IMG/VR virus record: IMGVR_UViG_3300033061_001070
Coordinates: 3,622 to 67,621 of that record
Length of the DNA: 64,000 nucleotides
Reading direction: 5' to 3' (one strand)
Source: a virus
Taxonomy: Duplodnaviria > Caudoviricetes
Translations under genes and position numbers: made by a program
Part shown: positions 1-50,898 of the stretch, piece after piece
How positions within the stretch are numbered: the first letter of the stretch is position 1
Layout of the letters: the number at the start of each line of letters is the position of its first letter
Notes under the pieces: generated by a model
Databases searched by the model: none
What the model was told of the DNA's origin: nothing
What the model saw: the letters and a program-made list of their open reading frames with translations, nothing else

Positions 1-62
1 GTCCAAGCTACTCATTGGATGCCTTTACCAGAACCGCCACAGGAATGACACGGTGTCAATAA

Positions 63-290
63 ATGACTAAACAACAGGCAACGACCAAACATGGTGGACA
101 ACGTAAGTACGGCAGAAATAAGGAAAAATGTACGGCATATAAGAATGCCCATACAAGAGAGAGAAATAAGGCAAAGAGAGTATTGCAGAGTAGTGGCACA
201 AAAGCCTGCGAAAAATATTGTAAACTTACTGGAGTAAAGTTACCAGCAAGATATTGGATGTTAGCGCAAAAGGAGCATAAGCATGGATAG
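63..290 (+). CDS. Hypothetical basic protein
   Basis: 75-aa ORF, Lys/Arg-rich, overlaps the next ORF start. Confidence 0.5.
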   Translation: MTKQQATTKHGGQRKYGRNKEKCTAYKNAHTRERNKAKRVLQSSGTKACEKYCKLTGVKLPARYWMLAQKEHKHG

Positions 291-444
291 AACCTATCCT
301 TATGAGCCAGATGCATATTGTGATGATTGTGGATGTTTAGGTGCATTTGATGTCATGGGTGATTATTACTGTTCGAAGTGCCTAGAACTTAATTTGCGTA
401 ATGATGATACAGATGATATGGATAATTGGAATGAAGAAGATTGA
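283..444 (+). CDS. Small Cys-rich (CxxC...CxxC) acidic protein
   Basis: Translated manually: MDRTYPYEPDAYCDDCGCLGAFDVMGDYYCSKCLELN...; SD AGGAG upstream; stop codon lies within palindrome site 442. Confidence 0.55.
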   Translation: MDRTYPYEPDAYCDDCGCLGAFDVMGDYYCSKCLELNLRNDDTDDMDNWNEED

Positions 445-18008: not shown

Positions 18009-18638
18009 ATGTCAGTCTTAATATCAGATATAGATTATAAAGAATTTAGGATATTACAAGACAACTCTATTTTTCAGCGGAAACTAAACTCTGTTCGAGG
18101 AATGAATAAATTGGAATATGATATAGATATTCCAATGAAATGTCTTATTGCTATGTTTACTCTATTAGGTTGTGAAACTAGGTGGTGCTGTTGCGGTTTT
18201 GATTATGAAAGTCAACCTATGCATAAGACACATGAATATGGGAATGTGTTTATAATATTTCATTCTACAAAAAGAATAAAAGAAATTATAAATGCCCTAA
18301 TAATAAAGGAGATAGTAGTAAATAGAGGCAGTAAAACGGACAAATGGGAATATTGGGAAATGGGAGATGCTATTTATCTGCGTTCCGATTTTGATTATTA
18401 CCATGAAGAAAGTAAATATCCTTGGTCAATAAAATCATGTATTCACTACCCTGAATTATCTTTAATCAAGATAGATGAATTGGAAAAAGCATTAGTTATT
18501 AATTTCAAAGGTGAGTTTGCTGATGAGGCTACATTATCAGATGCCAATAAGATAAGTAAATCCATAATGAAAAATTGGCAATATCCAATACTTGAAGATT
18601 GGATAATTAAAAAGTCAGACATATTTAATAAGGAATAG
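18009..18638 (+). CDS. Hypothetical protein
   Basis: ORF with likely ATG 18009; ETRWCCCG motif. Confidence 0.6.
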   Translation: MSVLISDIDYKEFRILQDNSIFQRKLNSVRGMNKLEYDIDIPMKCLIAMFTLLGCETRWCCCGFDYESQPMHKTHEYGNVFIIFHSTKRIKEIINALIIKEIVVNRGSKTDKWEYWEMGDAIYLRSDFDYYHEESKYPWSIKSCIHYPELSLIKIDELEKALVINFKGEFADEATLSDANKISKSIMKNWQYPILEDWIIKKSDIFNKE

Positions 18639-18640
18639 AA

Positions 18641-19165
18641 ATGATAACTAATCCCAGATTATTTGGAATACCTATAGCCCAAAGATGGGATCAATTGGCT
18701 GTCTTATTTGAGGATATTGAAACTTATAAGGTCAATGTAGTTGTTGAGATTGGTCTATTCTGTGGTGGATTAGCCGATTTATTCCTAATTCGTCAGCAAC
18801 TTGTCCCCGACTTTCATTACTTTGGAGTAGAATTTGATCCATCATTCCTTGCTCCTAGATTGCGAGGGCGACCAGAAATAATGATTAGGGATGCCTTCGA
18901 TAGTAACACCGTGTCAATGGTACAGTCCAAAATTGCACAGTATAAAACTGCGCTTATCTACTGTGATGATGGAAACAAACCCAAAGAGATGAATACATAT
19001 GCCCTAATTCTACGGGTAGGGGATTTACTTATGGTACATGATGTTACTACAGAGGTTACATTTGATGATTTAGATAACTTTGGTAGGGATTTTTCATCCC
19101 TAGAAGAATTAGAACCAAATGACCATCGAGGAGTTTGCATGTCTTTATGGAGGAGATTTTATTAA
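18641..19165 (+). CDS. Class I SAM-dependent methyltransferase (CmcI/sugar O-methyltransferase-like)
   Basis: VVVEIGLFCGG, VEFD, IYCDDGNK, LRVGDLLMVHD. Confidence 0.7.
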   Translation: MITNPRLFGIPIAQRWDQLAVLFEDIETYKVNVVVEIGLFCGGLADLFLIRQQLVPDFHYFGVEFDPSFLAPRLRGRPEIMIRDAFDSNTVSMVQSKIAQYKTALIYCDDGNKPKEMNTYALILRVGDLLMVHDVTTEVTFDDLDNFGRDFSSLEELEPNDHRGVCMSLWRRFY

Positions 19166-19783
19166 ATGGACAACTGGAATAGAAACAAATACGAATATTT
19201 CAAGGACTATGTTAAACCTACCAAACTACCCAAGGAACATTTTGATGATTGGGTGAAATATTATAAGGCATGGGATGGGGCAGGTATAGCCCAACTCCCT
19301 GAGCAGGTTAGGTTATTGCTTAAGATAGTTGAAGATTTTGAGATACAAACTGTCATTGAGTTAGGAATTATGGGTGGCGGTATGTCCTTGATGATGCTAG
19401 ACAGGAAGGCGGCATATCCTGGATTTGAATATTATGGAGTAGAGATAGAGACAACCTATATCCATGAGAAAGTTAGACACAGACCAGAGATTATTATTGG
19501 GGACGTGTTTGATGCAAATATTTGGTGGCGAATAAATAATATAATTCAGGATGCTTCTGGAACTGTCTTAGTATTCTGTGATAATGGAAATAAACCTGAA
19601 GAATTACATAAATATGCGCCCCTGATACGAGTTGGAGATTATATTATGGCACATGATTATCCTGGCGAAGTAAATGATGAGTTTCTAAGTACTTTTTATA
19701 ATACAAGCCCCCTAAGTTTATATGAAGTTGATCGCCAACTTTATAGAGATTATGGATATGTTTTATTTAGGAGGATGATATGA
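19166..19783 (+). CDS. Class I SAM-dependent methyltransferase, paralog of the upstream gene
   Basis: TVIELGIMGGG, GVEI, VFCDNGNKP, IRVGDYIMAHD. Confidence 0.7.
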   Translation: MDNWNRNKYEYFKDYVKPTKLPKEHFDDWVKYYKAWDGAGIAQLPEQVRLLLKIVEDFEIQTVIELGIMGGGMSLMMLDRKAAYPGFEYYGVEIETTYIHEKVRHRPEIIIGDVFDANIWWRINNIIQDASGTVLVFCDNGNKPEELHKYAPLIRVGDYIMAHDYPGEVNDEFLSTFYNTSPLSLYEVDRQLYRDYGYVLFRRMI

Positions 19784-20526
19784 GAATAATTGTATGTGTT
19801 AGAACATTAAATGAAGCAGAACGGATTGAGAAGTTCTGTCATAGTTATCCATTCGCTGACAAAATCTTGATCGCTGATGGAGGTTCGGAGGATAGGACTG
19901 TAGAGATTGCATGGAAGCAACCAAGGACATTTGTTAGGGATTATCTTCTCAAGGTGGAGTGTAAGAATGGAATATGGAGAAATCCTGATGGACTTCACCT
20001 TCAATTCCTTTTCGATTGGGCAGTAGATGAAGGCGCAGATTGGATTATTTCCCAAGATTGTGACCAGCGACCCAATAAAATTCTGAAGAATGTCATCCGA
20101 GATGTTCTATCCAAAACAGATATGGATTTCATCACGGCAACTCAAGTATTTCGATGGGGTAAAGACCAATATTTTCCAGCTTTCTCTACCAAAAATGGGA
20201 ATATGTACCTAGAAGATGCCAATAAAGAGAAATGGTATCAAGGAATGTGGGCATGGAGAGCAAATATAGGATTGAAAGTAGTAGATGCTATGCCCCATTA
20301 TTTCTTCAACTTCGATGGAAGTAAGAATATGTTAGACATTGATAAGACAGGCAGATGTTTTAGGATATATCCTCCTGCCTGCTTTATGCATTATGGATGG
20401 ATAACACCAGAGATGACAGAGGCACACATGGAATATTATCGCAAGTCTGGTCTCATTCCTGGTCAGTTACATCCATTACAAATGTGCGGTGCGCCTGCGC
20501 CATTACTTGATTGGATGGTAGAATGA
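19780..20526 (+). CDS. Glycosyltransferase family 2
   Basis: IIVCVRTLNEAERI..ILIADGGSED..DWIISQDCDQ. Confidence 0.8.
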   Translation: MRIIVCVRTLNEAERIEKFCHSYPFADKILIADGGSEDRTVEIAWKQPRTFVRDYLLKVECKNGIWRNPDGLHLQFLFDWAVDEGADWIISQDCDQRPNKILKNVIRDVLSKTDMDFITATQVFRWGKDQYFPAFSTKNGNMYLEDANKEKWYQGMWAWRANIGLKVVDAMPHYFFNFDGSKNMLDIDKTGRCFRIYPPACFMHYGWITPEMTEAHMEYYRKSGLIPGQLHPLQMCGAPAPLLDWMVE

Positions 20527-21248
20527 AATATAATTGTAGATTTAACCCCACCATTTCAGGTAATCTTCATTGTGGTCATTTATATACTGCCCTTGTCAAT
20601 GCTAGAGAGGCGCATAAATCCAATGGAGAATTTATCCTACGCATTGATGATACCCAAGAATATTGGAATAAGCAATTAGGCAGTACACTTGTCAAACAAC
20701 TTGGGAATGATTACATAGATGAACTTAGCCAGTTTATGTTCATTGATAAGATTGAATGGCAGAGTGAACTTCCTTGTTTTGCTTATACCAATGAAGTACA
20801 AGGATTAAATGGATGGGTACATCATCCATCATTTATACATGATGATGTCCCTGAATGGATACCCGATCCTAACACAATATTGTATCCCTTTACTGCTTGG
20901 TACACATTTGAGAAGGTATTATGGGATTATGTAGATAAAGTCAATTGGCTAATTCGTGGGGAGGATTTGATTACGGAGTTCTCATTGTATGAATTTTTCA
21001 GGGATGCTTTACACCTGCCTCGTGTAAGACATACTTATCTTCCGAGGTTACGAACTGAGGAACAGAAGGAATTGGCAGGAGTATCTAAAACATTTGGCTC
21101 ATATAAATTATGTGACCAATTGAAATTATTTGGGGTTGATGGTACACTAGATTATCTTAGGCAATCATGTCTTATTAATGTAGATGGAGATTTTGAGGTA
21201 GCGAATATAAAATGTCGCCCTACTATCGTTGGCTTCGTGCCTCACTAG
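20523..21248 (+). CDS. Minimal glutamyl-tRNA synthetase-like protein (catalytic domain only; GluQ-RS-like)
   Basis: RFNPTISGNLHCGH (HIGH), FILRIDDT, NWLIRGEDL, YLPRL..GVSKT (KMSKS-like); no anticodon-binding domain. Confidence 0.8.
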   Translation: MKYNCRFNPTISGNLHCGHLYTALVNAREAHKSNGEFILRIDDTQEYWNKQLGSTLVKQLGNDYIDELSQFMFIDKIEWQSELPCFAYTNEVQGLNGWVHHPSFIHDDVPEWIPDPNTILYPFTAWYTFEKVLWDYVDKVNWLIRGEDLITEFSLYEFFRDALHLPRVRHTYLPRLRTEEQKELAGVSKTFGSYKLCDQLKLFGVDGTLDYLRQSCLINVDGDFEVANIKCRPTIVGFVPH

Positions 21249-22186
21249 GTAAGAGGGAGACAGGAATTATAATTTCAATTATTATACTTGTGAGTATATT
21301 CTCGATAGTTAATCCTGCCTTCCTCAAAATAGATAATCTAACTGCTATCCTCAGAGCTTGTGCCTTTATTGGTATAACCTCTGTAGGTATGGCTTTCCTA
21401 TTAATCTCTGGCATGATAGATTTATCTGTAGGAAGCACAGCGGGATTGGCGGCGATTGTAACAAGTTATCTGATAGTCAAATCTGGCTTCCCTATTCTGC
21501 CTAGTTATGTGGTAGGATTAATGGTTGGTGGAATAATTGGATGGATAAATTATACAATCATATTCAAAATGAAAATACCCGCGTTCCTCGCAACCATCGG
21601 GACAATGTATGCAGTTCGTGGAATAGCTCAGTTCATCTCCAATGGCTATACAATTTATCCCTTACCAAAAGTGGTAGAGAGTTTGGGTTCGGCACAACCA
21701 TTTGCTTTGTCGTATCATCTACTTATATTTGTGCTATTGGTTATTGGGGCAGAGATAATCCTAAACCAAACAATATGGGGACTATGCGTGAGGGCAACAG
21801 GAAGCGATAGAGAGATTGCTAGAATGACAGAAGTAAACGTAACTGCAATCAACTTATCTACTTTTATTATCGCTGGAATTATGGCAGCATTAGCGGGGTT
21901 ATTATTAATGTCGCGAGTAATTACGGGACACCCTAACATGGGCGCAGGTTATGAATTGCAATCTATAACTGCATGTGCTATTGGGGGTGTATCTTTATCA
22001 GGTTACGAAGGAGGCTTTATCGGAGTATTTCTCGGAGTGTTAGCAATACAGATTATCAACAATGGAATGGTTACATCAGGGGTTTCTGTCTACCTGCAAA
22101 ATGTGGTAGTAGGAATGTTATTAATTATCATCGCCGCCATAGATTTCCAGAGGCGGCAACAACTTAATATAGGAGATAACAGATGA
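21212..22186 (+). CDS. Sugar ABC transporter permease (RbsC/CUT2 family)
   Basis: ISGMIDLSVGS, GTMYAVRGIA, ATGSDRE, GYELQSITACAIGGVSLSG; highly hydrophobic. Confidence 0.9.
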   Translation: MSPYYRWLRASLGKRETGIIISIIILVSIFSIVNPAFLKIDNLTAILRACAFIGITSVGMAFLLISGMIDLSVGSTAGLAAIVTSYLIVKSGFPILPSYVVGLMVGGIIGWINYTIIFKMKIPAFLATIGTMYAVRGIAQFISNGYTIYPLPKVVESLGSAQPFALSYHLLIFVLLVIGAEIILNQTIWGLCVRATGSDREIARMTEVNVTAINLSTFIIAGIMAALAGLLLMSRVITGHPNMGAGYELQSITACAIGGVSLSGYEGGFIGVFLGVLAIQIINNGMVTSGVSVYLQNVVVGMLLIIIAAIDFQRRQQLNIGDNR

Positions 22187-23202
22187 ACACAAAATTTGAG
22201 CATCTTATCTATGTCGCTCTCATTCTTATTTTACTTGCAGGGATTGTCGTGATTTGGCGAGGTGTAGGAACTGCGCCAAAGACTACAGAAAATGTCTTTG
22301 CCAAGGCGCAAAATGGTAAGCCATTCTATATGACTGGTACAAATCGTAGCCATCCAGTAGTCCGAATTATGGAGGCAGGATTTCAAGCCGCCTGTGATGA
22401 TTATGGTCTTACTTGCCAACTGTTGGGCGTAGAAGGTGAGGACATTCCTGGAAAGATTGCTAGAATGGAACAGGGAATTGCTCTTGGTTCAAGCGGCATC
22501 GTAGATACAGTACATGATAAAGCGGAGATTGCTTCTGCACTCAAGGCTGTACAAGCAGATATCCCAATCATCAATGCCCACTTTCCAATCGTACAAGGCG
22601 ACATACCCGGATTGCTGGCATGGGTAGCCCCCAATAATGTTGCTTATGCGGCAAGTGCGGCGGTTGCAATGGCTGATAAACTGCAATGTAAAGGCAAAGT
22701 TAGTGTTACTCAAGGTGGATTGAATGAAGGCGAGAACGCAGTATCCAAATCCTTTATCGAGACCTTGAAAGCGACCTGCCTTGACATTGTTGTTCTTGAT
22801 GTCCAGATTGAGAATTATGATCCTGCACAAGCTGAAGCGGCTACTACTGCAATCATCCAAGCCAATCCAGATTTATCTGGTGCATTCAGCACGACTGGTG
22901 GTGGGGCAAAAGCCTGGGCGAATGGACTTGAAGCATCAGGCAAGAAACCTGGAGAAGTTGTAGTTATGGGTATGGACGCTAGCCGCGAAAATCTTGATTT
23001 ATTGAGGAGTGGCAAGGTCTATATGCTTGTGGGACAACCTTTATATGAGGAATTTTACCTTTCAGTTGTCCTACTTACGCAGAAGGCTATGGGATTTCCT
23101 GTACCGTATGGCAATGAACTTCCAGCACCATTGATTACCAAAGATACAGTAGATAGGTACTATCATATTAATGACCTTGCTGAGGCAGTTGTAATCAAGT
23201 AA
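22183..23202 (+). CDS. Sugar ABC transporter substrate-binding protein (RbsB/CUT2 family)
   Basis: N-terminal TM anchor; HPVVRIMEAGFQAAC, AIIQANPDLSGAF, VVVMGMDA..LDLLRSG..LVGQPLYEEFY. Confidence 0.85.
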   Translation: MNTKFEHLIYVALILILLAGIVVIWRGVGTAPKTTENVFAKAQNGKPFYMTGTNRSHPVVRIMEAGFQAACDDYGLTCQLLGVEGEDIPGKIARMEQGIALGSSGIVDTVHDKAEIASALKAVQADIPIINAHFPIVQGDIPGLLAWVAPNNVAYAASAAVAMADKLQCKGKVSVTQGGLNEGENAVSKSFIETLKATCLDIVVLDVQIENYDPAQAEAATTAIIQANPDLSGAFSTTGGGAKAWANGLEASGKKPGEVVVMGMDASRENLDLLRSGKVYMLVGQPLYEEFYLSVVLLTQKAMGFPVPYGNELPAPLITKDTVDRYYHINDLAEAVVIK

Positions 23203-23213
23203 GGATAATCACT

Positions 23214-23261: not shown

Positions 23262-23324
23262 GTTAGATGTATAAAATAGTTTCAAAGGTGTATTTTTTGG
23301 TGCATAGAACCTAAAGGATAAAAT

Positions 23325-23516
23325 ATGAAAATTCAAATAGATAATGCTTATGTAATAGAATATGGTGAGGCTAATTTATATCAATCTTATTTTCTTGAGT
23401 TTGATCTTATGGATGATATGATTTCTAATGTGGAAGAATGGAATAACTTCTTCAAATCTCTTAAAAATGGAAAGTCAGTTACATTAACTATTGAACAAAA
23501 AGATGAAGAACTGTGA
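23325..23516 (+). CDS. Hypothetical protein
   Basis: 63 aa, AAGGA SD. Confidence 0.5.
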   Translation: MKIQIDNAYVIEYGEANLYQSYFLEFDLMDDMISNVEEWNNFFKSLKNGKSVTLTIEQKDEEL

Positions 23517-24541
23517 CCTTTCTGAATAGTGCCGACTTTCTTATCTTAATGAACCCCAACCCACGGGCTGAGGCGGCAGGGAGTTCTTTCATATATGTCC
23601 CTACCTTAGAGGATAGAATTAGATATAGAGAGGCAGGTATCCAGACTGCAATAGAATATCCACAATGGTACGCATTAGAGCCATCTAAAGGTCAATATGA
23701 TTTCTCTCATGTCGAAGAAATTCTGAGATTGAATCGGGAAGCAGGGATGAAAACTATCTTTGCCATCCCTGGCTTTGTCAATCCAGAATGGATGCCCGAT
23801 GAATGGTTTATCAAGAGTATAGAAGGAAAAATTGATAGGCGGGTTCTATCTTTTTGGAATATAGATGCACAAGCATATTTGATACATTATTGTGTCTCAC
23901 TTATCAAGAAATATGGTGCAGAAGATGTTTTGTTTATCTTTAGTGAGAGTGAGAATGGTGAGAATAACTTACCAACTACACCAAGTTTCTATGATGACCA
24001 TGCATTAGCAGAGTATAGAAGCATATATGGCTCGCTGGCGTACCCTGATATTAATAATATAACTTCATATCCACAGACAAAAGAATGGTTGCGGAAATCT
24101 GCACTTGCTCATCACATGGAATTACAGGGGGTTTTCTACCCGCAGAAGAAAGAAATCTGGAACATGATGCAATGGCTATATGACCAATGGTCGAAGGCTA
24201 CGTTGAACTTTGTCCAACTAGAATTAATGCAGTTATATAAACAAGTATGGAGAGATGTTGAAATTGTCCTGCTTCAATATACATTTTTTGATGATGCGCA
24301 TACAGATGAGAATGCAGAATATGTGGATAGATTAATGAAAAAGACACCGTGTCAAGTAATTGTTGAAGCACATTTCGCTAGTGGACTAAAGATAACAACT
24401 CCTCAAGCAATTGCTAAGGGGTTTAGGGGACAGATAATCTGCCCTACCCATCCACAATCGGGGAAGAATAAACTAGAACAATGGATGCTAGAGGAGATTA
24501 AGAAGTCTAATGAACTATGGCTTCAATCTACGGGGCAATAA
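23513..24541 (+). CDS. Glycoside hydrolase, TIM-barrel (GH42/GH14-like)
   Basis: QWYALEPSKGQYDFS..EAGMKTIF..PEWMPDEW, SFWN motifs. Confidence 0.65.
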   Translation: MTFLNSADFLILMNPNPRAEAAGSSFIYVPTLEDRIRYREAGIQTAIEYPQWYALEPSKGQYDFSHVEEILRLNREAGMKTIFAIPGFVNPEWMPDEWFIKSIEGKIDRRVLSFWNIDAQAYLIHYCVSLIKKYGAEDVLFIFSESENGENNLPTTPSFYDDHALAEYRSIYGSLAYPDINNITSYPQTKEWLRKSALAHHMELQGVFYPQKKEIWNMMQWLYDQWSKATLNFVQLELMQLYKQVWRDVEIVLLQYTFFDDAHTDENAEYVDRLMKKTPCQVIVEAHFASGLKITTPQAIAKGFRGQIICPTHPQSGKNKLEQWMLEEIKKSNELWLQSTGQ

Positions 24542-42353: not shown

Positions 42354-42623
42354 TTACTCCTTGATGAGTATTTTTGGTTTGGGTACTATGATTTTATCTT
42401 GTTCTTGTTGCAATGCTTGATTTTCTTGCAAATTTAATTGAAATTTGGCTTTGAAATCCAGATATGCCGCAATCTCAAGCATCTGGAAGGGAGTAACATT
42501 CTCCACTCCTAACTTGAAGAAGGATGAACCTGGAGATATAAATTCAATAAAGATTATACTTCTTTCTACTGGTGTATCATTCATAAACAACTCCACTCCG
42601 ACCAGGCAAGTTTGCCTCCCCAT
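42354..42623 (-). CDS. Hypothetical protein
   Basis: 89-aa ORF. Confidence 0.45.
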   Translation of the reverse strand: MGRQTCLVGVELFMNDTPVERSIIFIEFISPGSSFFKLGVENVTPFQMLEIAAYLDFKAKFQLNLQENQALQQEQDKIIVPKPKILIKE

Positions 42624-43438
42624 CGCTGTAGGAAGATTAGACGATTGAAATCCAACGGGAAACCTTCTTTATATTTCTCCGCCGTTGCGCCTGTGTAATG
42701 TATTCCTCTTGCGCTAGGGTTCACAACGATATTATATCCCATTTCTCTAACTTTTAGACAGTAATCGACATCCTCATATGTGCCTTTGCCATAACCCTCA
42801 TAGAATAATCCAGCCTTATTGAACAAGGAACGGCGAGTTATCATTGCCGCCCCCGTCACGGCATAGACATGCCGCATTGCATTCACTTTAGGATGTTCTG
42901 CATCCCATCCTAAGAATACATGAATAAATTCACCACGAATGTTGGTCATAAGACCAATATGTTGCAACATTCCAGCAGGACGATGAATCTTGTCCTGAGG
43001 CAAACCCTCCGCATCATCAGGGAATACCAGCTTCATTCCTATTGCCCCATTCTGAGGATCATCCATATCCCTAACTAAGGTATTGATGCTCCCAGGGTCA
43101 GCCATGACATCTGAATTTAGAAACATTACTAGAGGTGCATAGCCACGCCTGAAGCCCTGATTGCAACCTTTAGGGAAGCCAAAGTTTTCTTTATTCCTGG
43201 TGATGACTACATTATCCATATGCAATGACCCATAAAAAGCATCTGCCTCCGCTTTATCAGGGGAGGCATTATCTACTAAGATTACATTGTATGGAGTATC
43301 TTTCGCCGCTTCTGGCAAGGCTTGAAGGCATTTAGCCAGGAGGTCAAACCTCCCATGCACCAAGATAACTATATTCAGGAGATACCGCTCAATTTTTTGA
43401 GCAGATGGATTTTTCTTCTTGTTGTTGTGTTTTCCCAT
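42581..43438 (-). CDS. Glycosyltransferase family 2
   Basis: VILVDNAS, NFGFPKGCNQG, FLNSD, AVTGAAM, YEDVDYCL. Confidence 0.9.
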   Translation of the reverse strand: MGKHNNKKKNPSAQKIERYLLNIVILVHGRFDLLAKCLQALPEAAKDTPYNVILVDNASPDKAEADAFYGSLHMDNVVITRNKENFGFPKGCNQGFRRGYAPLVMFLNSDVMADPGSINTLVRDMDDPQNGAIGMKLVFPDDAEGLPQDKIHRPAGMLQHIGLMTNIRGEFIHVFLGWDAEHPKVNAMRHVYAVTGAAMITRRSLFNKAGLFYEGYGKGTYEDVDYCLKVREMGYNIVVNPSARGIHYTGATAEKYKEGFPLDFNRLIFLQRWGGKLAWSEWSCL

Positions 43439-43583
43439 AGGTTCTATTCATTCCTTCTAATTCTATCAATGCAAAATGCCAATCATGAAACCTAATTGGG
43501 AGTTCTTTTCCTGTTGCTACATTATAAATAACCCAATAGGTTTCATCTCCATCACGGCGCATTCTGACCTTGAAATACTTCAC
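43389..43583 (-). CDS. Hypothetical protein
   Basis: 64 aa between GT genes. Confidence 0.4.
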   Translation of the reverse strand: MKYFKVRMRRDGDETYWVIYNVATGKELPIRFHDWHFALIELEGMNRTYGKTQQQEEKSICSKN

Positions 43584-44700
43584 TTTTGCTTTCCTTCAGT
43601 TCGGTTAGAGATTTATCTAGTATTGTAACTGCCTTATCCCAAGTACGATTTTCGACATATTTGCGCGCCTTCTCTATTCGAGAAGTCTGGTCGGAAGCGT
43701 AAATAAGATTTAGCTTATTTACAGCATCCTCATGATTAATAAAATAGCGATTGCCATTGCCAAATGGGTCGGTATAGAGAGGCAAATCATATTTCACTAA
43801 CTCTCCACGACCATCTGCCAGCAATTCAGACATGCCTGTACAATTTGTAGCTACACAAGGGACACCAACTGCCATAGCCTCCAATAAGGTCATCCCCAGC
43901 CCTTCACACTTCGAGGGGAGAAAGAAGGCATCTGCCATTGCATAGACATTCCATAGCCCCTTTTGGTTCATGCCGCGCTCAATAAGCATAAACCTATCAT
44001 TTATGCCCTTAAATTGAGCATAATCTCGCAAATTCCAGCCAACCATGTTGAACTCGCGCGTAACCATGACGTAGCGAACTTTTTTGTCCTTAGCAAAATC
44101 AGCAACGATGTCCATGCCCTTAGCTAAGTTCTTGCGCTCTTGATTATCGGCATTGGTAAAAATGACAAACTCATCTGGCTCAATCCCAAACTCAGTCCTA
44201 ATTTTCTGACGTTCCTCTTCGGCTCTCATCCTCCATAACACCGTGTCAATACCAATGGGAATATACTCAGCATTCATTACTCCCGCTTTGTGAGCTTCCT
44301 CTGTACCAAACTCAGAGATTATTAGTGGCTTATTTATCGCCATTAATATCATTGCCCAGCTTAGACATAGTGGGTCAGCCTCGATGGGCATAATTCCTAG
44401 ATATTTGAATGGCGCATTAGGAAATAGATAGTAGACCATCTTCTGAAGTGGGATGTCTAATGCAACAACCAGAACATCCAAACCCCACATATTGACAAGA
44501 TTTATGACCTGGGCTTGAGCTTCCCGTAAATCTCGTGTAGGAATGATGGAGAACTTATTATGATGCTCCTGTCCCGTATAGCCAAGACCAAGAGCCTTTA
44601 TCTCATATCCCTTTTCAGTCAGAGAATTACAAAGTGGAACGCTAATATTGAGGTAACCTGACCCTTGTGGGTCAAAGTCAGAGAGCCATGCTAGATGCAA
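43552..44700 (-). CDS. Glycosyltransferase family 4 (GT-B)
   Basis: ADAFFLPSKCEGLGMTLLEAMAVGVPCVAT. Confidence 0.9.
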   Translation of the reverse strand: MHLAWLSDFDPQGSGYLNISVPLCNSLTEKGYEIKALGLGYTGQEHHNKFSIIPTRDLREAQAQVINLVNMWGLDVLVVALDIPLQKMVYYLFPNAPFKYLGIMPIEADPLCLSWAMILMAINKPLIISEFGTEEAHKAGVMNAEYIPIGIDTVLWRMRAEEERQKIRTEFGIEPDEFVIFTNADNQERKNLAKGMDIVADFAKDKKVRYVMVTREFNMVGWNLRDYAQFKGINDRFMLIERGMNQKGLWNVYAMADAFFLPSKCEGLGMTLLEAMAVGVPCVATNCTGMSELLADGRGELVKYDLPLYTDPFGNGNRYFINHEDAVNKLNLIYASDQTSRIEKARKYVENRTWDKAVTILDKSLTELKESKSEVFQGQNAP

Positions 44701-44702
44701 CT

Positions 44703-45725
44703 TTATCCTCCAAATACTAATTTATCCCATTGAGAAGCGATGCTCAATGGATTAAATCGCTTAATAGACAACTTTTGTACTTTATCCTGTTCAGCCTTAA
44801 GTATATCAGGATTATTCAATAACCATAAGAGTGTTTCTGGTATTGATTTCTCCGTTAGGATATGACCCATGTTAGTTGTGCGTAATGCTCCTTGTCCTGT
44901 TGTTATAGGCAACGCTCCTGCCACCTGCGCCTCAGCACACGCAATGCAGAATAGTTCATCATAGATGCATGGATACACAAATAATTGCGCCTTCAGTTGT
45001 TCGTCAATTAATCTTGCGCGGGTTACTGCTCCAAGATAGAACACGCCTCCACCAATAAAACTTGCCCAACCAGAGCGATGAGGGCCATCGCCAGGGAAAG
45101 GAACTCCCCACAATCTATAATCACTTGTAATTACTAAGCTAGTTTCTGGAACGGCAGAATGGATGGTTTTCCAAATGCTTCTCATCCCCATTAATCCCCT
45201 ATCAGGAACAGAAGTAAATATCATGCGCCCTGGAATTTTCTCAATATGACTATGATTATAGTCATCTAATCTCACGGATAAATCTATAACTATGGTATTC
45301 TCAATATGGAAAGTGTCTTTGAAATATTGCTGATGGAAAGGCGAGATTACCACAATCTTATCCATAAATTGTGCATATTCTCCATATTTGCCTTTAGTAC
45401 CCTGGTCGCAACTCCACCAGACCTTTAGACCTTTGGCTGGGATAGCATTGACATTTGGAGTGCGAAAGACAATCAGAATATCTCTATCTGTATCAGTCTC
45501 AAATTCACTCTTGCGCCGTTGCTCAAATGGAGATGCATTAGGTTCTTTGGGGTCATTGTAGAGTATAACTTCATGACCTAATTGATGCCAAGTCTCACAC
45601 ATCGTCAGAAGCGCGAGTTCTGCCCCACCTACTCCGATATGCCATTGGTCTCCCCATATAGATTTGCTGGAAACTCCTAGTGGAGAACCATCAGTCGTGA
45701 GAATTTCTATTCGCATTTGCATCAT
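44703..45725 (-). CDS. Glycosyltransferase family 4 (GT-B)
   Basis: GGAELAL, FTSVPDRGL, YPCIYDELFCIACAEAQVAG. Confidence 0.85.
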   Translation of the reverse strand: MMQMRIEILTTDGSPLGVSSKSIWGDQWHIGVGGAELALLTMCETWHQLGHEVILYNDPKEPNASPFEQRRKSEFETDTDRDILIVFRTPNVNAIPAKGLKVWWSCDQGTKGKYGEYAQFMDKIVVISPFHQQYFKDTFHIENTIVIDLSVRLDDYNHSHIEKIPGRMIFTSVPDRGLMGMRSIWKTIHSAVPETSLVITSDYRLWGVPFPGDGPHRSGWASFIGGGVFYLGAVTRARLIDEQLKAQLFVYPCIYDELFCIACAEAQVAGALPITTGQGALRTTNMGHILTEKSIPETLLWLLNNPDILKAEQDKVQKLSIKRFNPLSIASQWDKLVFGG

Positions 45726-46359
45726 CCTCTGCTACGCATTGTTGTAACTTAAAGTGCAATAGTTCCCATTCTTCGGGAAAATCTACATCATCGGTGTAAT
45801 CATAAAACTGCACCAGCAGTTCTGGCTTATCAAAGGCATGATAAAGTGTCCACAATTTTGCAGGCAGATTGTGCATAGCCATCATGCGCCATGTCCAATA
45901 GCAAGCATCTGCAACTTCTTTATGCTTCTCTCGATAGATGCTGATGCCAAATATTTCAGATTGGGATTTGCCTGTGACCTTATTCTCTCCTAAGCGACCA
46001 TAGAAGGAGAATGGACGGTCATCTGCAAATATCTTCTTTATGGCATAATTGCTGAAGATGACATCGCCAAGCAGGATAATTACTCTATCATAATCCCATG
46101 AAAGCTCTTTGTAGGTTAGCCAAATCCCATGCAAAATTTCACCTGGGTTTTTGAACGTTTGGTGCATCACATTTATAGGAAAATCTTCTGGAGCAATAAG
46201 AGTATTGTTCTCACCCCAAAGCTGGTATATGGTTCGACCAATGATGGTGGAATATCCAACACCTAATTTCGTGATGGGGAGCAGTTGTTTATATCCCATA
46301 TCGGCACTTTTCCATCTTGCCCCTTTCCCCTGTGCCATAATATAGATTTTTCTATTCAT
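45691..46359 (-). CDS. Sugar-phosphate nucleotidyltransferase-like protein
   Basis: IYIMAQGKGARW..KQLLPI, LLGDVIF, DDVDFPEEW. Confidence 0.7.
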   Translation of the reverse strand: MNRKIYIMAQGKGARWKSADMGYKQLLPITKLGVGYSTIIGRTIYQLWGENNTLIAPEDFPINVMHQTFKNPGEILHGIWLTYKELSWDYDRVIILLGDVIFSNYAIKKIFADDRPFSFYGRLGENKVTGKSQSEIFGISIYREKHKEVADACYWTWRMMAMHNLPAKLWTLYHAFDKPELLVQFYDYTDDVDFPEEWELLHFKLQQCVAEDDANANRNSHD

Positions 46360-46543
46360 CTAATAATCCTTCTAATATCTCAATTGCTTCAAAATAACTT
46401 TTTCGTCTTATGGAGCATCCTTTAGCGTGAGGAGTATCTGCTATACCTGCATCAAATATATTAGCATCAAAGACAACCTCTTTCAACTGATGTCGTAAGG
46501 CTTCAATTGCTAATTTTATTGCTTTCTTCTTATTCATACCCAT
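46352..46543 (-). CDS. Hypothetical protein
   Basis: 63 aa, coupled stop/start. Confidence 0.5.
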   Translation of the reverse strand: MGMNKKKAIKLAIEALRHQLKEVVFDANIFDAGIADTPHAKGCSIRRKSYFEAIEILEGLLDE

Positions 46544-46893
46544 CGTTCTCCTCCTGTGGCATGTTTACCAAATGTAGCATGAACCATGCAAACCATCATC
46601 TTGCCCTGTGGGGACGCATCCAGCAAGTATCCACTTTGCCCCACAATTATGCCTACGCCTCCACAGGAGCAGGCAAAGGATGGCGCATATTTATAATGCT
46701 TAGGCATCTCATATAGGAAGTGGTCATCGTATGGGGCGGCAGGAATAAAGCCGCCATACTCAGGTACAAAGAATTTGTCCTGTCCATATACCCATGTCCC
46801 ATCAGGAAGTTGGGCCTTAGTGGGTGTCCCATAGTGACGAATGATTTGGAAAGATACTCGGTCTATGTTTAATTGCTTTGGTTTTTCTTTCAT
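46534..46893 (-). CDS. Hypothetical protein
   Basis: 119 aa, coupled stop/start. Confidence 0.55.
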   Translation of the reverse strand: MKEKPKQLNIDRVSFQIIRHYGTPTKAQLPDGTWVYGQDKFFVPEYGGFIPAAPYDDHFLYEMPKHYKYAPSFACSCGGVGIIVGQSGYLLDASPQGKMMVCMVHATFGKHATGGERWV

Positions 46894-47798
46894 ATTAATT
46901 TACACGCCTCCAATATTGTCTGCACCCTAGCATCATAAGTATGAGGTTTCACTTTTTCATATCCAGCAGTTGCTAGGCGGTTTCTTCGTTCTTCATGGTC
47001 AAGAAGGCATAAGACTCGCTCCTCCGCTTCCGCTGGAAGATTAAACCCAAGATAATCCTCCTCATCTACAAAAAAGGTGTCTGCATCAGGAACTTGATTA
47101 GCAACCATTGGCATCCCCATCGCCAGCATTTCCCAAAATCTTGCATTCATATCCAACATACTAGACCAATTTAGTCCAATTTTGCTCTTATTGTGAATAG
47201 CACGATATTCATCAAATATGAGACCTAGACCATAGTAAACCTTCAAGCCATGAGAACTCAAACGGCGCACAAGTTCGTCCCTCTGCGGATAATGAAGCCC
47301 AATCAGGCAGGCATCATATTCCTTTGGCAAATCCTCATGGTAATGGATAGTTGGGTCATAGCCATAGGGAAGATAGATTTCATCCTTCTCCATATAGGGG
47401 GTCTGCATACAGAATACCACATCAGAATATTGCTTTGGCTCTACATATGTAGGCTTCAGGACATGCGGGTCAGTCTCCAGCAGAGCCACAACTTTTCCTT
47501 TTGGTCTGTCCCTGAAATGGAAGCCAGCGTCTATCTGCAAGAATAAGTCTGGCTCAAATGGAAGATGTGGAGCAACTACAGCGAATGGAATACTCGGAGG
47601 GACTGGATTTGCTGGTAGAGAGAAGTTAGGAGCTTCAACATATCGCTGAGGCATCTTCATTCCTCCACCCCAGGGGATAGTATCTCCTGAAAATGGGCCA
47701 CAAGTCCATAATTCGACATCCGTTCTGCGCCTGAAGGCGCGAATGAAATATCGCATCATGGTCATTGGATAGAAGATACCAGAGATGACTACTTTCAT
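46890..47798 (-). CDS. Glycosyltransferase (GT-B, CgeB/YkvP-like)
   Basis: SKIGLNWS..DMNARFWEMLAMG..HTYDARV. Confidence 0.8.
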   Translation of the reverse strand: MKVVISGIFYPMTMMRYFIRAFRRRTDVELWTCGPFSGDTIPWGGGMKMPQRYVEAPNFSLPANPVPPSIPFAVVAPHLPFEPDLFLQIDAGFHFRDRPKGKVVALLETDPHVLKPTYVEPKQYSDVVFCMQTPYMEKDEIYLPYGYDPTIHYHEDLPKEYDACLIGLHYPQRDELVRRLSSHGLKVYYGLGLIFDEYRAIHNKSKIGLNWSSMLDMNARFWEMLAMGMPMVANQVPDADTFFVDEEDYLGFNLPAEAEERVLCLLDHEERRNRLATAGYEKVKPHTYDARVQTILEACKLI

Positions 47799-49081
47799 AA
47801 TTTCTCCATAAATTCATATATTTTTTCTATAACATAGTCCAAATGTGCCAAGGTCAATCCAGGATGGCAACCAATCCAGAATGTGCGTTCCATCACATAA
47901 TCCGCCCCACTCAGGTCTCCATGTATCTCATACTTCACATTCTCCATCATGGGTTGGCGAGTAATATTGCCAGCGAACAAAGGACGGGTTCGGATTAGAT
48001 TTTCCTCCAGAAAGTCCACCAAGTCTTTTCTGGTAAACGCATCTGAGATAACCGTCATTGGGAAGCCAAATGGAGACGGAAGAGAATGAGAGCATTGCTG
48101 AACAAACATCAAATGTTCCCCAAATTGCTCCAGGTTTTCCCGCAAATATTGGTAATGTCGTCTCCTAATTTCCACGAATTTTGGGAGTTGGATCAATTGA
48201 GATAACCCCAATGCTCCTTGTAGTTCTGTCATCTTCAGATTGTAACCTAGACGGGTAAAGGTGTATTTGTGGTCATATCCATAGGGGAGATGTTTCCAAT
48301 TCAGGCTAAATCGCTTACCACAAGTATTATCTTGCCCAGGCAGACATTTGCAATCTCGTCCCCAATCTCGGAAACTATTTAACTCATGATAGAGATATTC
48401 ACTACTGGTAAATACTGCACCACCCTCACCAGTTGTAATATGATGAGCGGGAAAGAAACTTGCAATCGAACAACTCCCCAACTGACCAACCCCACGACCA
48501 CTTACTTCTGCACCAAGAGCATCGGCAATATCCTCGACTAAGAAACAATCTAACTCATCTGCAATAGTCTTGACAGCAGATACATCAAATGGGAAACCTA
48601 ATGTATGTGCCAAAACTATTCCAGCCGTCCAGCCCATAGTATCTATCGCCTCTAACACGGTGTCGGCATCAACATTTAGTGTTTCAGGGTTTATATCAAT
48701 AAACTTCGGGATAAGATTATTCTGGATAATCGGAGTAATAGTTGTCGGAAATCCAACTGCACAAGTTACTACTTTCTTTCCAAGCCTTCCGACATTAGTT
48801 TTCAAGGCAGTAAGAGCCAATAGACTGGCAGATGAACCAGAATTACATAGGACAGCATATCGTGTCCCTACAAATTTGCATAACTCTTTGGAGAATTGTC
48901 TACAGAGTGCGCCTTCGGTAAACCACCCATCTAATGTTGCAGATACTACGGAGACTAAATCATCTGGCGATATAACTGCGCCAGAGACAGGTACTATATC
49001 TATTCCTGCCCTAAATTCTTTTGGTTCTAAGTTCTCATCTGCATATTTTCTTATTTCATCCAGTATCTTCTGCTTGTTCAT
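47795..49081 (-). CDS. rfbH: CDP-4-keto-6-deoxyglucose 3-dehydratase (E1; RfbH/DdhC, DegT family)
   Basis: SFFPAHHITTGEGG (His in place of the usual Lys), RDCKC..DNTCGKRF Fe-S motif, YDHKY, GYNLK, RPLFAGN. Confidence 0.9.
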   Translation of the reverse strand: MNKQKILDEIRKYADENLEPKEFRAGIDIVPVSGAVISPDDLVSVVSATLDGWFTEGALCRQFSKELCKFVGTRYAVLCNSGSSASLLALTALKTNVGRLGKKVVTCAVGFPTTITPIIQNNLIPKFIDINPETLNVDADTVLEAIDTMGWTAGIVLAHTLGFPFDVSAVKTIADELDCFLVEDIADALGAEVSGRGVGQLGSCSIASFFPAHHITTGEGGAVFTSSEYLYHELNSFRDWGRDCKCLPGQDNTCGKRFSLNWKHLPYGYDHKYTFTRLGYNLKMTELQGALGLSQLIQLPKFVEIRRRHYQYLRENLEQFGEHLMFVQQCSHSLPSPFGFPMTVISDAFTRKDLVDFLEENLIRTRPLFAGNITRQPMMENVKYEIHGDLSGADYVMERTFWIGCHPGLTLAHLDYVIEKIYEFMEKL

Positions 49082-49445
49082 CTATATTTATTTTCCTTGG
49101 TCTCCATACAGGTTCTTCACCCAAATCACAAATCTGGCTAATTAACTTATTAATCCCCTTTGCCCACTCATCCATCTGTCTTTCTAACTCAGTTACTTTT
49201 CTTTCCAGTTTGTCTATGTTCTTCATAAGCCTAGTTTCTCTGTCAGCAGATTGGGATGCAATATCTGAATATTGTTTCGCAGTTTGCGATTTGGCTTCCT
49301 CAGCCTCACATTCAAGTTTCTTTGCAGTTGATTTTGCTACCTTCTGGTCACTTGGTGTCATTCTTGCTATCTTTATCCACATGAATATCATACCAATAAG
49401 TGCAGTTATTCCAGGGAGGGCATCACACCAATCATGTAAGGTCAT
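49056..49445 (-). CDS. Membrane-anchored coiled-coil protein (possible lysis accessory)
   Basis: N-terminal TM segment followed by heptad repeats. Confidence 0.5.
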   Translation of the reverse strand: MTLHDWCDALPGITALIGMIFMWIKIARMTPSDQKVAKSTAKKLECEAEEAKSQTAKQYSDIASQSADRETRLMKNIDKLERKVTELERQMDEWAKGINKLISQICDLGEEPVWRPRKINIDEQAEDTG

Positions 49446-50155
49446 TTCTTAATCTCCAGATGCTCGATTATTTCTTTGAAGTATGGTTGCCATTTGTTCA
49501 AATACTTTTGTCTATTTTCCTCTGTGTTCTTTGCTCTATCAGGATTGACCTTAGCGATAGTTGCCCCGCCAATATGTTTCAAATTAGGATTATTCAGGGC
49601 GACTATATTATATCCCAAAAGTGTTGCCTTTGTGCTTAAATCTATATCCTCGTAATCGTAAAATCCATAGATAGGGTCGAACCCTCCAATCTTCCTCCAT
49701 ACCTCTGTAGTACAGGCGACAAGCCAACCATTCGCATAGGGGAGGATATATTTCTTTCCTTCATATTCAAAGGTATTCCATCCACTATCCCAATAGATCA
49801 ATTCCCCGCCAATCAAGACATCATTAGATAATTTCTTCTCAATTTGAGATAGGAAATCTCCGATAATAATGACATCATTGGATAAGAAGATAAGTGCCTC
49901 TGCGCCATGATGCATTGCGATTTTCGCTCCAATATTCATTGATCCCCCAAATCCTATATTTTCAAGGTTCTTATAATATTTAATATTAGGACGGATAGAT
50001 TGCCACCATGCTACACCTTTCTCACAATCCTCCTGTGTACTGGCATCATTGACTAACACGATGTCAACATCTCGTGCATACCTATGTAAATTCATCAGAC
50101 AAGAATGAGTTAGAGACCACATATTATAGAAGGGAACGATAATAAATATTTTCAT
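49442..50155 (-). CDS. Glycosyltransferase family 2
   Basis: IIVPFYN, VNDAS, NIGFGGSMNIG, LSND, YEDIDLS. Confidence 0.88.
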   Translation of the reverse strand: MKIFIIVPFYNMWSLTHSCLMNLHRYARDVDIVLVNDASTQEDCEKGVAWWQSIRPNIKYYKNLENIGFGGSMNIGAKIAMHHGAEALIFLSNDVIIIGDFLSQIEKKLSNDVLIGGELIYWDSGWNTFEYEGKKYILPYANGWLVACTTEVWRKIGGFDPIYGFYDYEDIDLSTKATLLGYNIVALNNPNLKHIGGATIAKVNPDRAKNTEENRQKYLNKWQPYFKEIIEHLEIKK

Positions 50156-50343
50156 TTTGTAATTTCCGCCATCAGTCCTAAAAATAAGGAGAAAGTAAGA
50201 ACAACCAAAAGAAGAATAGGAAAAGCAAAGTAATTCATTGAATGGGAAGTAAAATATATTAATAAAATAGAACCTACAAACATACATCCTCCTATCCCTA
50301 CTAACAAAGACAATCCTCTAACCAATATTTTAAGGGTATTCAT
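50152..50343 (-). CDS. Small membrane protein
   Basis: 63 aa, two TM segments. Confidence 0.45.
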   Translation of the reverse strand: MNTLKILVRGLSLLVGIGGCMFVGSILLIYFTSHSMNYFAFPILLLVVLTFSLFLGLMAEITK

Positions 50344-50401
50344 CTCATCTCCTGAATTAATAATGCTCTAGGCGCACCACATTGGGTACATGATTTATCT
50401 T

Positions 50402-50896
50402 TCATTTCAATTCTTTGCTATCCAATTTTATCAATTTTTCTTGTAATCTAGAAATATCATCTATACCTAATTGGTCATTTACTTTATTCAATATTTGTGC
50501 AATCTCCGTGAATGGCTTACTTGTATAATCATTCTTCCAGAAAGCAATTCCTGAAGGAGTAATTTGTAAATATCTTGCATATGATGGTGCATATACGTCA
50601 ACAGCGAGAGCTTTATGTTCTTTACAGGGAAAAATTAACCATGCCCCTACTGATTGTAAACTCTCATAACTGCTTATATGAAAATCATTACAGTCATTTG
50701 CGTGACAATGCCAGCAAGTATCTATTCCTCGTTGCTGTCGGGGGGAAACCCAAAATTCCTTTAATTTGCCATGAAGCATCTTAAGACAAACTAGAAATTC
50801 TGCCCTACCTAAGTTTTGCCCGCCGGGTGTATCATCCAGCCATTTGAAAGGCATAAATACATTTTCTTCTATTTCTACTTGTTTTAATTTGTACAT
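50402..50896 (-). CDS. Hypothetical protein
   Basis: 164 aa, CWHCH motif. Confidence 0.55.
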   Translation of the reverse strand: MYKLKQVEIEENVFMPFKWLDDTPGGQNLGRAEFLVCLKMLHGKLKEFWVSPRQQRGIDTCWHCHANDCNDFHISSYESLQSVGAWLIFPCKEHKALAVDVYAPSYARYLQITPSGIAFWKNDYTSKPFTEIAQILNKVNDQLGIDDISRLQEKLIKLDSKELK

Positions 50897-50898
50897 TT

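Follow-up and report, generated by a model that had tools for sequence, protein, structure and literature searches.

Positions 20523 to 21248 of the window (the whole 64,000-nucleotide stretch of viral DNA that was analyzed) encode a protein of 241 amino acids that, judged from its sequence and predicted structure, is an intact, conserved, and minimal GluRS-type catalytic core. At a probability of roughly one half, we propose that it activates a glutamate-like amino acid independently of tRNA and ligates it, as an ester, to a sugar or glycan; as part of this best explanation, the gene would descend from the catalytic domain of GluRS/GluQRS. The gene and the neighbors that bear on the proposal are as follows.

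18641..19165, + strand: second CmcI-like methyltransferase (weak Pfam match, below cut-off)
19166..19783, + strand: CmcI/rhamnosyl O-methyltransferase-like protein, which recurs beside the barrel in loci L003 and L004
19780..20526, + strand: GT2-like glycosyltransferase, translationally coupled (ATGA) to the GluRS-like gene
20523..21248, + strand: GluRS/GluQRS-like minimal catalytic core, 241 aa, with HCGH and VSKT ATP motifs
21212..22186, + strand: CUT2-type sugar ABC permease (BPD_transp_2; AraH/RbsC-like)
22183..23202, + strand: Peripla_BP_4 sugar-binding protein with an N-terminal hydrophobic anchor
23513..24541, + strand: compact glycosidase-like (beta/alpha)8 barrel, 342 aa, with E150 invariant, E214 near-invariant, and a Glu at 285 or 287
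42581..52535, - strand: late-operon glycan cluster (two GT2, two GT4, Glyco_trans_1_2, RfbH 3-dehydrase, and two RmlD-like reductases)

Sequence, fold, and predicted active site

The reading frame is free of stops. Its ATG at 20523 overlaps the stop codon of the GT2 gene, and its own end (stop codon 21246-21248) overlaps the permease ORF (start 21212) by 37 nt; both overlaps had been described in the first-pass annotation and were confirmed. The motifs read H16-C-G-H19, L39-R-I-D-D-T44, I144-R-G-E-D-L149, and G185-V-S-K-T189, and translation together with Pfam upheld the earlier description of a class I core lacking an anticodon domain: the PF00749 match is confined to residues 5-48 (E 5e-15), and no anticodon-binding domain was found by Pfam, neither Anticodon_2 nor PF19269. 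The protein falls below the equivalog level for GluRS (TIGR00464, 38.5 bits; cut-off 289.95), and the best scores with the GluQRS models TIGR03838 and NF004313-5 were 50.3, 44.1, and 43.9 bits (cut-offs 250, 256, and 276.7), over residues 2-46 only. In PHROGs, the sole match was of the N-terminus to an unnamed family, and PADLOC found no defense or anti-defense match among eight cassette proteins.

The AlphaFold model is compact (pLDDT 91.7), and its best Foldseek matches are GluRS and GluQRS, the two enzymes with which the first-pass annotation had suggested that it be compared. In VIA, the model aligned with bacterial GluRS at Z 19.4-17 (~210 residues, 20-23% identity), with GluQRS (4..294) at Z 18.1 (206 residues, 2.8 A), with GlnRS at Z 15, and with CysRS at Z 13.6 and 10% identity. 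The residues that hold glutamate in T. thermophilus GluRS have counterparts in the phage protein (R6 for R5, D42 for E41, and R145 for R205), and R6 and R145 are invariant in an alignment of 27 sequences. The ATP-site residues are also conserved. The protein most probably forms an aminoacyl-adenylate, much as the first-pass annotation had supposed. The pocket differs from that of GluRS in that N191 is replaced by K/R131 and Y187 is not conserved, and because these positions are changed, the activated acid may differ from glutamate.

The acceptor-binding/zinc domain is strongly reduced. Profile alignment to T. thermophilus GluRS matches query residues 3-46 to chain residues 2-45 and query residues 125-199 to chain residues 185-256, leaving 78 residues between the blocks where GluRS has 139. 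The replacement of the domain itself spans 40-62 aa across the family (median 43), against ~90 residues in GluRS; it is poor in Lys and Arg (7% K+R) and has neither a Cys-x-Cys motif nor a conserved Cys, so that the zinc cluster of GluQRS is not matched. The usual acceptor/Zn insertion, earlier thought to be missing, has lost its zinc motif but is shortened rather than wholly gone.

Family and gene neighborhoods

The GluRS-like family is real, well beyond any chance resemblance, and under constraint. The protein has 40 close homologues (33-57% identity), and a profile search at E<=1e-30 brought in at least 158 clusters of relatives at 50% identity, nearly all of 230-260 aa. HxGH is present in 153 of 173 family members and SK[T..] in 148 of 173; R6, P9, T10, G18, R40, D135, R145, G146, and K189 are invariant, C216 is the only near-invariant Cys, and the proteins are acidic (median pI 5.7, 94% of members). 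The family is large and undescribed, no account of it having been found in the literature, and it is apparently phage-only, having been seen so far on viral contigs alone. Searches of 50,697 isolate phage records, by megablast with the cassette and by tblastn with the GluRS-like protein and the barrel, gave nothing or a 42-residue N-terminal match only, and two patterns of low sensitivity run against 185,579 GTDB genomes gave only N-terminal matches to ordinary GluRS. At E<=1e-20 no fused forms above 480 aa were found, which is weak evidence; one GT17-GluRS-like fusion (P0042) was seen, on a lone short contig, and misassembly or a frameshift could account for it.

Neighborhoods were counted over 22 dereplicated loci. 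The most constant partner, near the GluRS-like gene in 20 of them, is a TIM barrel resembling beta-amylase, GH42, and GH35 enzymes, and 13 of the 22 carry sugar ABC importer parts of two unrelated types. A CUT2 permease occurs in 12/22 loci, with the binding protein also present wherever the locus extends far enough; instead of CUT2 parts, L018 encodes a CUT1 binding protein together with two permeases and a GH36 melibiase. A glycosyltransferase lies directly upstream in eight loci (nine with the window) and belongs to the GT2, GT17, GT4, or TOD1-like family. The pair of GluRS-like gene and barrel also occurs without any glycosyltransferase or transporter, for example in L025 and L007. The cassette first described as a GT2 and two methyltransferases keeps its ATGA-coupled GT2 here, but the conserved partners are the barrel and the importer parts, CmcI-like methyltransferases recurring in only a few close relatives. 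Likewise, its place beside replication genes holds for this phage, where it follows genes for DNA polymerase, helicase, a RecA-like protein, and RuvC at the end of the + strand replication block and faces the - strand virion genes, but this position is peculiar to the lineage; elsewhere the pair belongs to the head/tail module or immediately follows a cluster of nucleotide-sugar and glycosyltransferase genes.

The partner barrel matches beta-amylase 3voc at Z 25.1 (311 residues, 3.0 A) and GH42/GH35 enzymes, a GH35 transglycosylase among them, at Z about 23, and by fold it is tied between GH14, GH35, and GH42. PF02449 (GH42) matches it at 31.5 bits (cut-off 21), over N-terminal residues 37-97 only, and no family assignment was obtained at a curated cut-off over the full length. 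In common with GH14, GH42, and GH35 enzymes, it has a G-E motif after strand 4 and a Glu close to the end of a late strand; where clan GH-A has its Asn-Glu acid/base motif, it reads G149-E150, and at 342 aa it is without accessory domains.

The closest solved relatives of the Peripla_BP_4 protein are CbpA and the T. maritima/arabinose sugar-binding proteins. Permease and binding protein are the only importer parts here, no ABC_tran (ATPase) gene being found in the complete 67.6-kb genome; a full importer, including a single-NBD ATPase, occurs in L026 and L029. The idea that the GluRS-like enzyme energizes the permease in place of the missing ATPase was rejected because the pair stands without a permease in 9/22 loci and a normal ATPase is encoded in two. 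The gene set of the late-operon glycan cluster lies directly upstream of the GluRS-like gene in relatives. Its DegT-like protein is an RfbH 3-dehydrase (515 bits; cut-off 423), and no RfbF-type nucleotidyltransferase for the RfbH pathway was identified among the scanned window genes.

Proposed activity and competing explanations

In the proposed reaction, the protein would bind ATP through HxGH and xSK(T) and an acidic alpha-amino acid, most likely L-glutamate, in the R6/D42/R145 pocket, giving an aminoacyl-AMP from which the aminoacyl group would pass to a carbohydrate hydroxyl. GluRS-type enzymes normally require tRNA to activate glutamate, GluQRS being the sole known exception (PMC9437257). 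The first-pass annotation had offered several acceptors, and a sugar or glycan is the best supported of them from gene context: it is probably a sugar rather than tRNA because the barrel, importer parts, and glycosyltransferases nearly always adjoin, although neighboring genes cannot by themselves name the acceptor. It could be a sugar that the co-encoded binding-protein-dependent importer takes up, that the barrel releases or rearranges, or both; it could also be a glycan under construction by the adjacent glycosyltransferases. An ester is favored over an amide because RfbH is a dehydrase and no amino-sugar step is visible. We infer that expression of the cassette precedes that of the late genes. 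In that case the cassette would supply or decorate the O-methylated, 3,6-dideoxyhexose-containing glycan of the late-operon cluster, perhaps on the virion or the cell surface. A hydrolase-like barrel with an importer fits catabolism as well as it fits glycan building. The general statement, that these phages use an enzyme derived from a synthetase, coupled to a phage-borne importer and a glycosidase or transglycosidase, to form aminoacyl (glutamyl) esters of sugars or glycans, is held more tentatively than the proposal for this one protein.

The other readings keep the enzyme at work on nucleic acid, give it different chemistry, or deny it a function. It is unlikely, in our view, that it modifies RNA in the manner of GluQRS, adding glutamate to a modified nucleoside of a host tRNA (queuosine or some other base with a diol), for example as protection from an anticodon nuclease, the base perhaps also being glycosylated by the neighboring glycosyltransferase. 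GluQRS is tied with GluRS as a structural match (Z 18.1 vs 19.4) and is the top NCBIfam match for the N-terminus; it activates glutamate free of tRNA, and no other GluRS paralogue is known to have a non-canonical role (PMC9437257). Yet GluQRS equivalog scores are 24-50 bits overall against cut-offs of 250-453, most of the zinc/acceptor insertion present in GluQRS is missing here and the remainder has few basic residues, and the nearly constant company of the barrel and sugar importers would be left unexplained. With no anticodon domain, a short insertion, an acidic family, and no associated tRNA genes, the predicted features are not those of an RNA binder. No tRNA gene was found by ARAGORN in the window, nor in 21 of the 22 loci, and the genome has no TGT/queuosine gene. 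The tRNA-like RNA at 5740, put forward earlier as an acceptor, did not hold up, no tRNA (ARAGORN) or Rfam family being found anywhere in the window, the 5740 region included. A genuine minimal GluRS, charging tRNA (Glu or Gln) for translation or tetrapyrrole synthesis, would account for the intact catalytic motifs and Glu-pocket arginines, but it is highly improbable for an enzyme that lacks the anticodon-binding domain and most of the acceptor-arm domain, scores 38.5 bits with TIGR00464 (cut-off 290), and has no tRNA gene association. That the gene is a functionless, decaying fragment of a captured host gltX, as its length of only about half that of GluRS might suggest and as the first-pass annotation had named as its refuting case, is refuted by the conservation data and has virtually no probability: the diverged clusters share one length, catalytic residues and neighbors (the barrel in 20/22 loci) are conserved, and a compact fold is predicted with high confidence.

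Different chemistry is conceivable because the HxGH/KMSKS fold is common to cytidylyl- and adenylyl-transferases. The enzyme might adenylylate a sugar acid or sugar phosphate instead of an amino acid, yielding an activated sugar for the adjacent glycosyltransferases; the departures from the GluRS pocket at N191 and Y187 and the RfbF-type gene not identified among the scanned genes speak for this. It is nonetheless distinctly unlikely, as the holder of the alpha-amino group (D42, equivalent to E41) and both arginines for the Glu side chain are retained, and in structure GluRS and GluQRS are clearly closer to it than nucleotidyltransferases are. A modified DNA base, another of the acceptors first suggested, was not borne out. 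Aminoacylation of a glycosylated base in the phage DNA would suit a cassette that follows the replication genes, and DNA-hypermodifying phage glycosyltransferases are known (bioRxiv 10.1101/2023.12.21.572611), although that source mentions no synthetase-like enzyme. We nevertheless regard it as very unlikely: ThyA-like, C5-methyltransferase, and TGT/DpdA genes were not found in the complete 67.6-kb genome (TET/JBP gave no match there either, but the control for that search also matched nowhere, which makes it uninformative), no hydroxymethyl-pyrimidine or 7-deazaguanine route was seen in the 22 loci, the pair sits among head and tail genes in other phages, the protein is acidic, and a periplasm-facing binding protein and permease would have no place.

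Significance and comparison with known systems

Among GluRS paralogues, GluQRS alone is known to work outside translation (PMC9437257); the GluRS-like family would be the second to do so. It is smaller than any described GluRS-type core and, if the proposed ligase activity is correct, may be the smallest natural class I synthetase core, carrying out glycan or small-molecule chemistry not known in viruses. Should the product be a free glutamyl-sugar, it would represent a new class of metabolite and possibly a trap for the imported sugar; attached to the virion glycan, it would give the first phage glycan known to bear an amino acid. The barrel, two unrelated kinds of importer, and four glycosyltransferase families together provide a concrete, testable lead: phages may use sugars modified with amino acids, in virion or cell-surface glycans or in sugar salvage. 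The family also offers a natural minimal scaffold on which to study tRNA-free glutamate activation by class I synthetases.

Bacterial GltX (1j09, 2ja2, 8i9i) is the best structural match. Its R5, E41, D195, R205, and the second Lys of KMSKS have counterparts in the phage protein, whereas N191 is replaced by K/R, Y187 and W209 are lost, domain 2 is cut from ~90 to ~43 residues, and nothing corresponds to domains 3-5, which contact the stem and bind the anticodon. GluQRS (YadB; 4a91, 1nzj) is alike in being a stand-alone GluRS catalytic domain of common fold without an anticodon-binding domain, and its HIGH and KMSKS-type motifs and Glu-binding arginines are retained in the phage protein. GluQRS esterifies a diol other than the tRNA 3' end, glutamylating queuosine-34 of tRNA-Asp. 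The phage protein is ~50-60 residues shorter, with the zinc-binding acceptor insertion mostly gone, and its family is acidic, so far viral, and set among carbohydrate genes, whereas GluQRS is found beside dksA-type loci.

A working functional parallel is MshC, the Cys:GlcN-Ins ligase of mycothiol synthesis and a paralogue of CysRS, which is a class I core without tRNA-binding parts and joins an activated amino acid to a sugar from a glycosyltransferase pathway (PMC9437257). The likeness is one of analogy, not homology, as CysRS belongs to another synthetase subclass (Z 13.6). MshC makes an amide on an amino sugar, whereas the phage genes, in which RfbH is a dehydrase, show no amino-sugar-forming enzyme; and MshC is cellular, whereas the GluRS-like family is viral.

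Fold, pocket, and reduced insertion of the GluRS-like protein

Genes of the window (all on the + strand) around the GluRS-like gene:
19780..20526 (+), GT2-type glycosyltransferase
20523..21248 (+), GluRS-like protein, 241 aa
21212..22186 (+), permease, BPD_transp_2
22183..23202 (+), binding protein, Peripla_BP_4
23513..24541 (+), glycosidase-like TIM barrel, 342 aa

The aaRS-like ORF proposed in the first-pass annotation was borne out, its 241 residues including HCGH, LRIDDT, IRGEDL, and GVSKT, as were both overlaps claimed for it: its ATG shares ATGA with the GT2 stop, and its final 37 nt lie inside the permease ORF. Pfam PF00749 and the NCBIfam GluQRS (Glu-Q-RS/YadB) and GluRS models covered only the first ~45 residues, with scores far under the equivalog cut-offs. 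A word-indexed search yielded 40 homologues of 213-274 aa (identity 33-57%), and when 1.84 billion representatives were searched with a profile, at least 158 family clusters scored E<=1e-30, nearly all of 230-260 aa. Invariant in a 27-sequence alignment were R6, P9, T10, G18, G35, R40, W48, P122, T128, D135, R145, G146, E152, Y156, P174, and K189; HxGH was found in 153 of 173 family members and SK[T/S..] in 148 of 173. The nearest Atlas clusters were 100% viral (Uroviricota) among those with a known taxon. The family is a new branch of GluRS paralogues, apparently confined to phages, whose architecture and conserved gene context are both new.

An AlphaFold2 model made from the alignment (pLDDT 91.7, pTM 0.90) had bacterial GluRS and E. 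coli GluQRS as its best Foldseek matches. By VIA-align, bacterial GluRS superposed with Z 19.4-17 over ~210 residues at ~3 A and 20-23% identity, and GluQRS 4a91 with Z 18.1; the values for other class I synthetases were 15.9 (MetRS), ~15 (GlnRS), 14.3 (class I LysRS), and 13.6 (CysRS). In GluRS, the glutamate side-chain carboxylate is held by R5 and R205 and the alpha-amino group by E41, and it is Arg at position 205 that tells GluRS from GlnRS. Profile alignment with T. thermophilus GluRS equated R6 with R5, D42 with E41, D135 with D195, and R145 with R205, and placed K189 at the second Lys of KMSKS. Because R6, D42, and R145 match the glutamate-holding residues, the substrate is likely an acidic alpha-amino acid, which we infer to be, most simply, L-Glu. 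The pocket differs from that of T. thermophilus GluRS at two positions, N191 being replaced by K/R131 and Y187 not being conserved.

In the same alignment, residues 47-124 (78 aa) replace T. thermophilus GluRS 46-184 (139 aa). Domain 2 of GluRS is described, in a passage of PMC4381286, as the acceptor-arm, putative zinc-binding domain; its replacement in the family, downstream of the conserved Q80-S81, is 40-62 aa long (median 43), predicted largely as coil (pLDDT 71-86), and contains 7% K+R vs 11% in the whole protein. The family alignment revealed a conserved [YH]-D-x-[VI]-P-[ED]-W-x-P-D ... Y-P-[YF] stretch in this piece and no Cys cluster. The family is acidic, with a median pI of 5.7, a median net charge of -6, and a pI <7 in 94% of members. 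The reduced insertion, low K+R content, and acidity argue against direct binding of tRNA or DNA.

Conserved neighborhood and genome setting

Related loci were gathered by exact protein look-up and an IMG/VR scan, their ORFs were searched with the proteins of the window, and neighbors were clustered; dereplication at 85% identity left n=22. A barrel homologue, detected with a profile of the window protein, lay within 6 kb of the GluRS-like gene in 20 of the 22 loci, and one of the two barrel-less contigs ends 590 nt past that gene. Several loci have two barrel paralogues flanking the GluRS-like gene. The BPD_transp_2 permease was present in 12 of 22 loci, and the Peripla_BP_4 binding protein in every one extending far enough. 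In L018, which belongs to another phage, one whose capsid is of the HK97 type, the order is TOD1/MUCI70-like glycosyltransferase, GluRS-like, barrel, SBP_bac_1, two BPD_transp_1 permeases, and GH36 melibiase, and this importer is a non-orthologous replacement of the usual permease and binding protein. Its CUT1 binding protein, two permeases, and 645-aa melibiase (L018:11733-16906) directly follow the GluRS-like/barrel pair, without an ATPase. A single-NBD ABC ATPase separates pair and permease in L026 and L029; none was found in the window's genome. In L025, the pair stands by itself between head-tail connector and tail genes; the portal protein there (L025:4585-6621) has a C-terminal 2'-5' RNA ligase/LigT-like phosphoesterase domain. 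The 340-kb viral contig IMGVR_UViG_3300035208_008180 (L020 and L031) carries two diverged GluRS-like copies ~100 kb apart, one with a barrel paralogue on each side.

The barrel model (pLDDT 92.1) matched beta-amylase with Z 25.1 over 311 residues at 3.0 A, and GH42 and GH35 enzymes, one a GH35 transglycosylase, with Z ~23. E150 (G-E motif) is invariant and E214 nearly so, and a Glu occupies either 285 or 287, one position compensating for the other. The barrel is predicted to be a hydrolase or transglycosidase, with a fold common to several GH families. The binding protein has a hydrophobic anchor at its N-terminus, and the solved structures closest to it are those of CbpA and of glucose- and arabinose-binding proteins from thermophiles.

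Genes upstream of the GluRS-like gene
GT2-type, directly upstream: window, L016, L029 (L029 match weak)
GT17, directly upstream: L002, L033
GT4, directly upstream: L003, L006
TOD1-like, directly upstream: L018
NDP-sugar 4,6-dehydratase, upstream: L024, L032
Barrel paralogue, upstream: L008, L019, L020, L026

In the 475-aa homologue P0042, GT17 is fused to the GluRS-like domain and the permease gene is next, but because it comes from a single 3-kb contig, the fusion is taken as weak support. Among 147 further neighbors, glycosyltransferases were the most frequent Pfam families, followed by capsid and portal genes. The L003 cluster runs two RmlD-like reductases, GT2, DegT-like, Glyco_trans_1_2, GT4s, GluRS-like, permease, binding protein, and barrel; a 72-kb contig has the same order but shows one RmlD-like reductase. 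In the window, this glycan gene set is split off into a late operon (42581-52535), which holds an RfbH equivalog (CDP-6-deoxy-4-hexulose 3-dehydrase) and two RmlD-like reductases. As the DegT-like protein (47795-49081, -) passed the RfbH equivalog cut-off (515.6 vs 423 bits), it is assigned from sequence as the 3-dehydrase of the 3,6-dideoxyhexose route and not an aminotransferase; the upstream CDP-glucose enzymes and E3 reductase were not found among the window genes scanned. Glycan clusters elsewhere contain a GT4 gene split by an intein that includes a LAGLIDADG homing endonuclease (L002:551-2821; Pfam Intein_splicing, LAGLIDADG_3) and a GIY-YIG/NUMOD3 homing endonuclease gene just 5' of the GT2 gene lying before the GluRS-like gene (L016:8041-8997).

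The source record, from IMG/VR, is 67,621 bp with direct terminal repeats and is 100% complete by CheckV estimate; the window covers its positions 3622-67621. The + strand at 1-24.5 kb encodes a primase, N6/N4 DNA methylase, DnaB-like helicase, family A DNA polymerase, UDG-family protein (14921-15430, immediately 3' of the polymerase gene), RecA/UvsX-like protein, and RuvC; virion genes and the glycan cluster occupy the - strand. No close isolate phage was found, the best DNA polymerase match being only 29% identical. Between RuvC and the first methyltransferase genes lies a Cys-rich protein of ~208-242 aa (18012-18638; ORF from 17910) that matched nothing in Pfam, PHROG, NCBIfam, or PADLOC and lacks a counterpart in the related loci. 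The binding-protein and barrel genes are separated by 310 nt (23203-23512), where a 63-aa ORF (23325..23516) lies, vs 12-15 nt in close relatives.

Proposed function and alternatives

Sequence, fold, and context together suggest, as the reading with most support and with a probability of about one half, that the GluRS-like protein is a tRNA-independent ligase. It would form an aminoacyl-adenylate without tRNA, probably Glu-AMP, and pass the activated amino acid to a carbohydrate hydroxyl, an acceptor type read from gene context alone. The product may be a decorated virion or cell-surface glycan, or a modified imported sugar.

A GluQRS-like RNA modifier, in keeping with the structural match to GluQRS, is doubtful given the argument against tRNA binding; no tRNA or tmRNA gene or Rfam family was found in the window, and 21 of the 22 loci had no tRNA gene. 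That the protein activates a sugar phosphate or the acid of a sugar is slightly less probable again. A role in DNA hypermodification is improbable: although the gene follows a replication region, the complete genome had no thymidylate-synthase-like, TGT/DpdA, or C5-methylase genes; a TET/JBP search was negative, its control being silent too, and a preprint on phage DNA glycosyltransferases does not mention a synthetase-like enzyme (bioRxiv 10.1101/2023.12.21.572611). In a separate check for defense functions, PADLOC matched none of the eight cassette proteins. A true minimal GluRS, which would share the fold and pocket and have the reduced insertion to contend with, is very improbable. A degraded gltX fragment is refuted by the many clusters of the same length and by the invariant and conserved residues, so the chance of a decayed remnant is negligible.

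The family would surprise specialists in both synthetases and phage glycans, and the proposal is directly testable. In a 2022 review of synthetase paralogues (PMC9437257), YadB is the sole GluRS entry, and MshC is the CysRS-derived Cys:GlcN-Ins ligase. The GluRS-like protein did not qualify as a GluQRS, a GluRS, or an MshC when tested for membership, but its proposed mode of action resembles that of MshC or GluQRS, and transfer to a carbohydrate hydroxyl would be chemically the same as aminoacylation of the A76 ribose or the queuosine diol.
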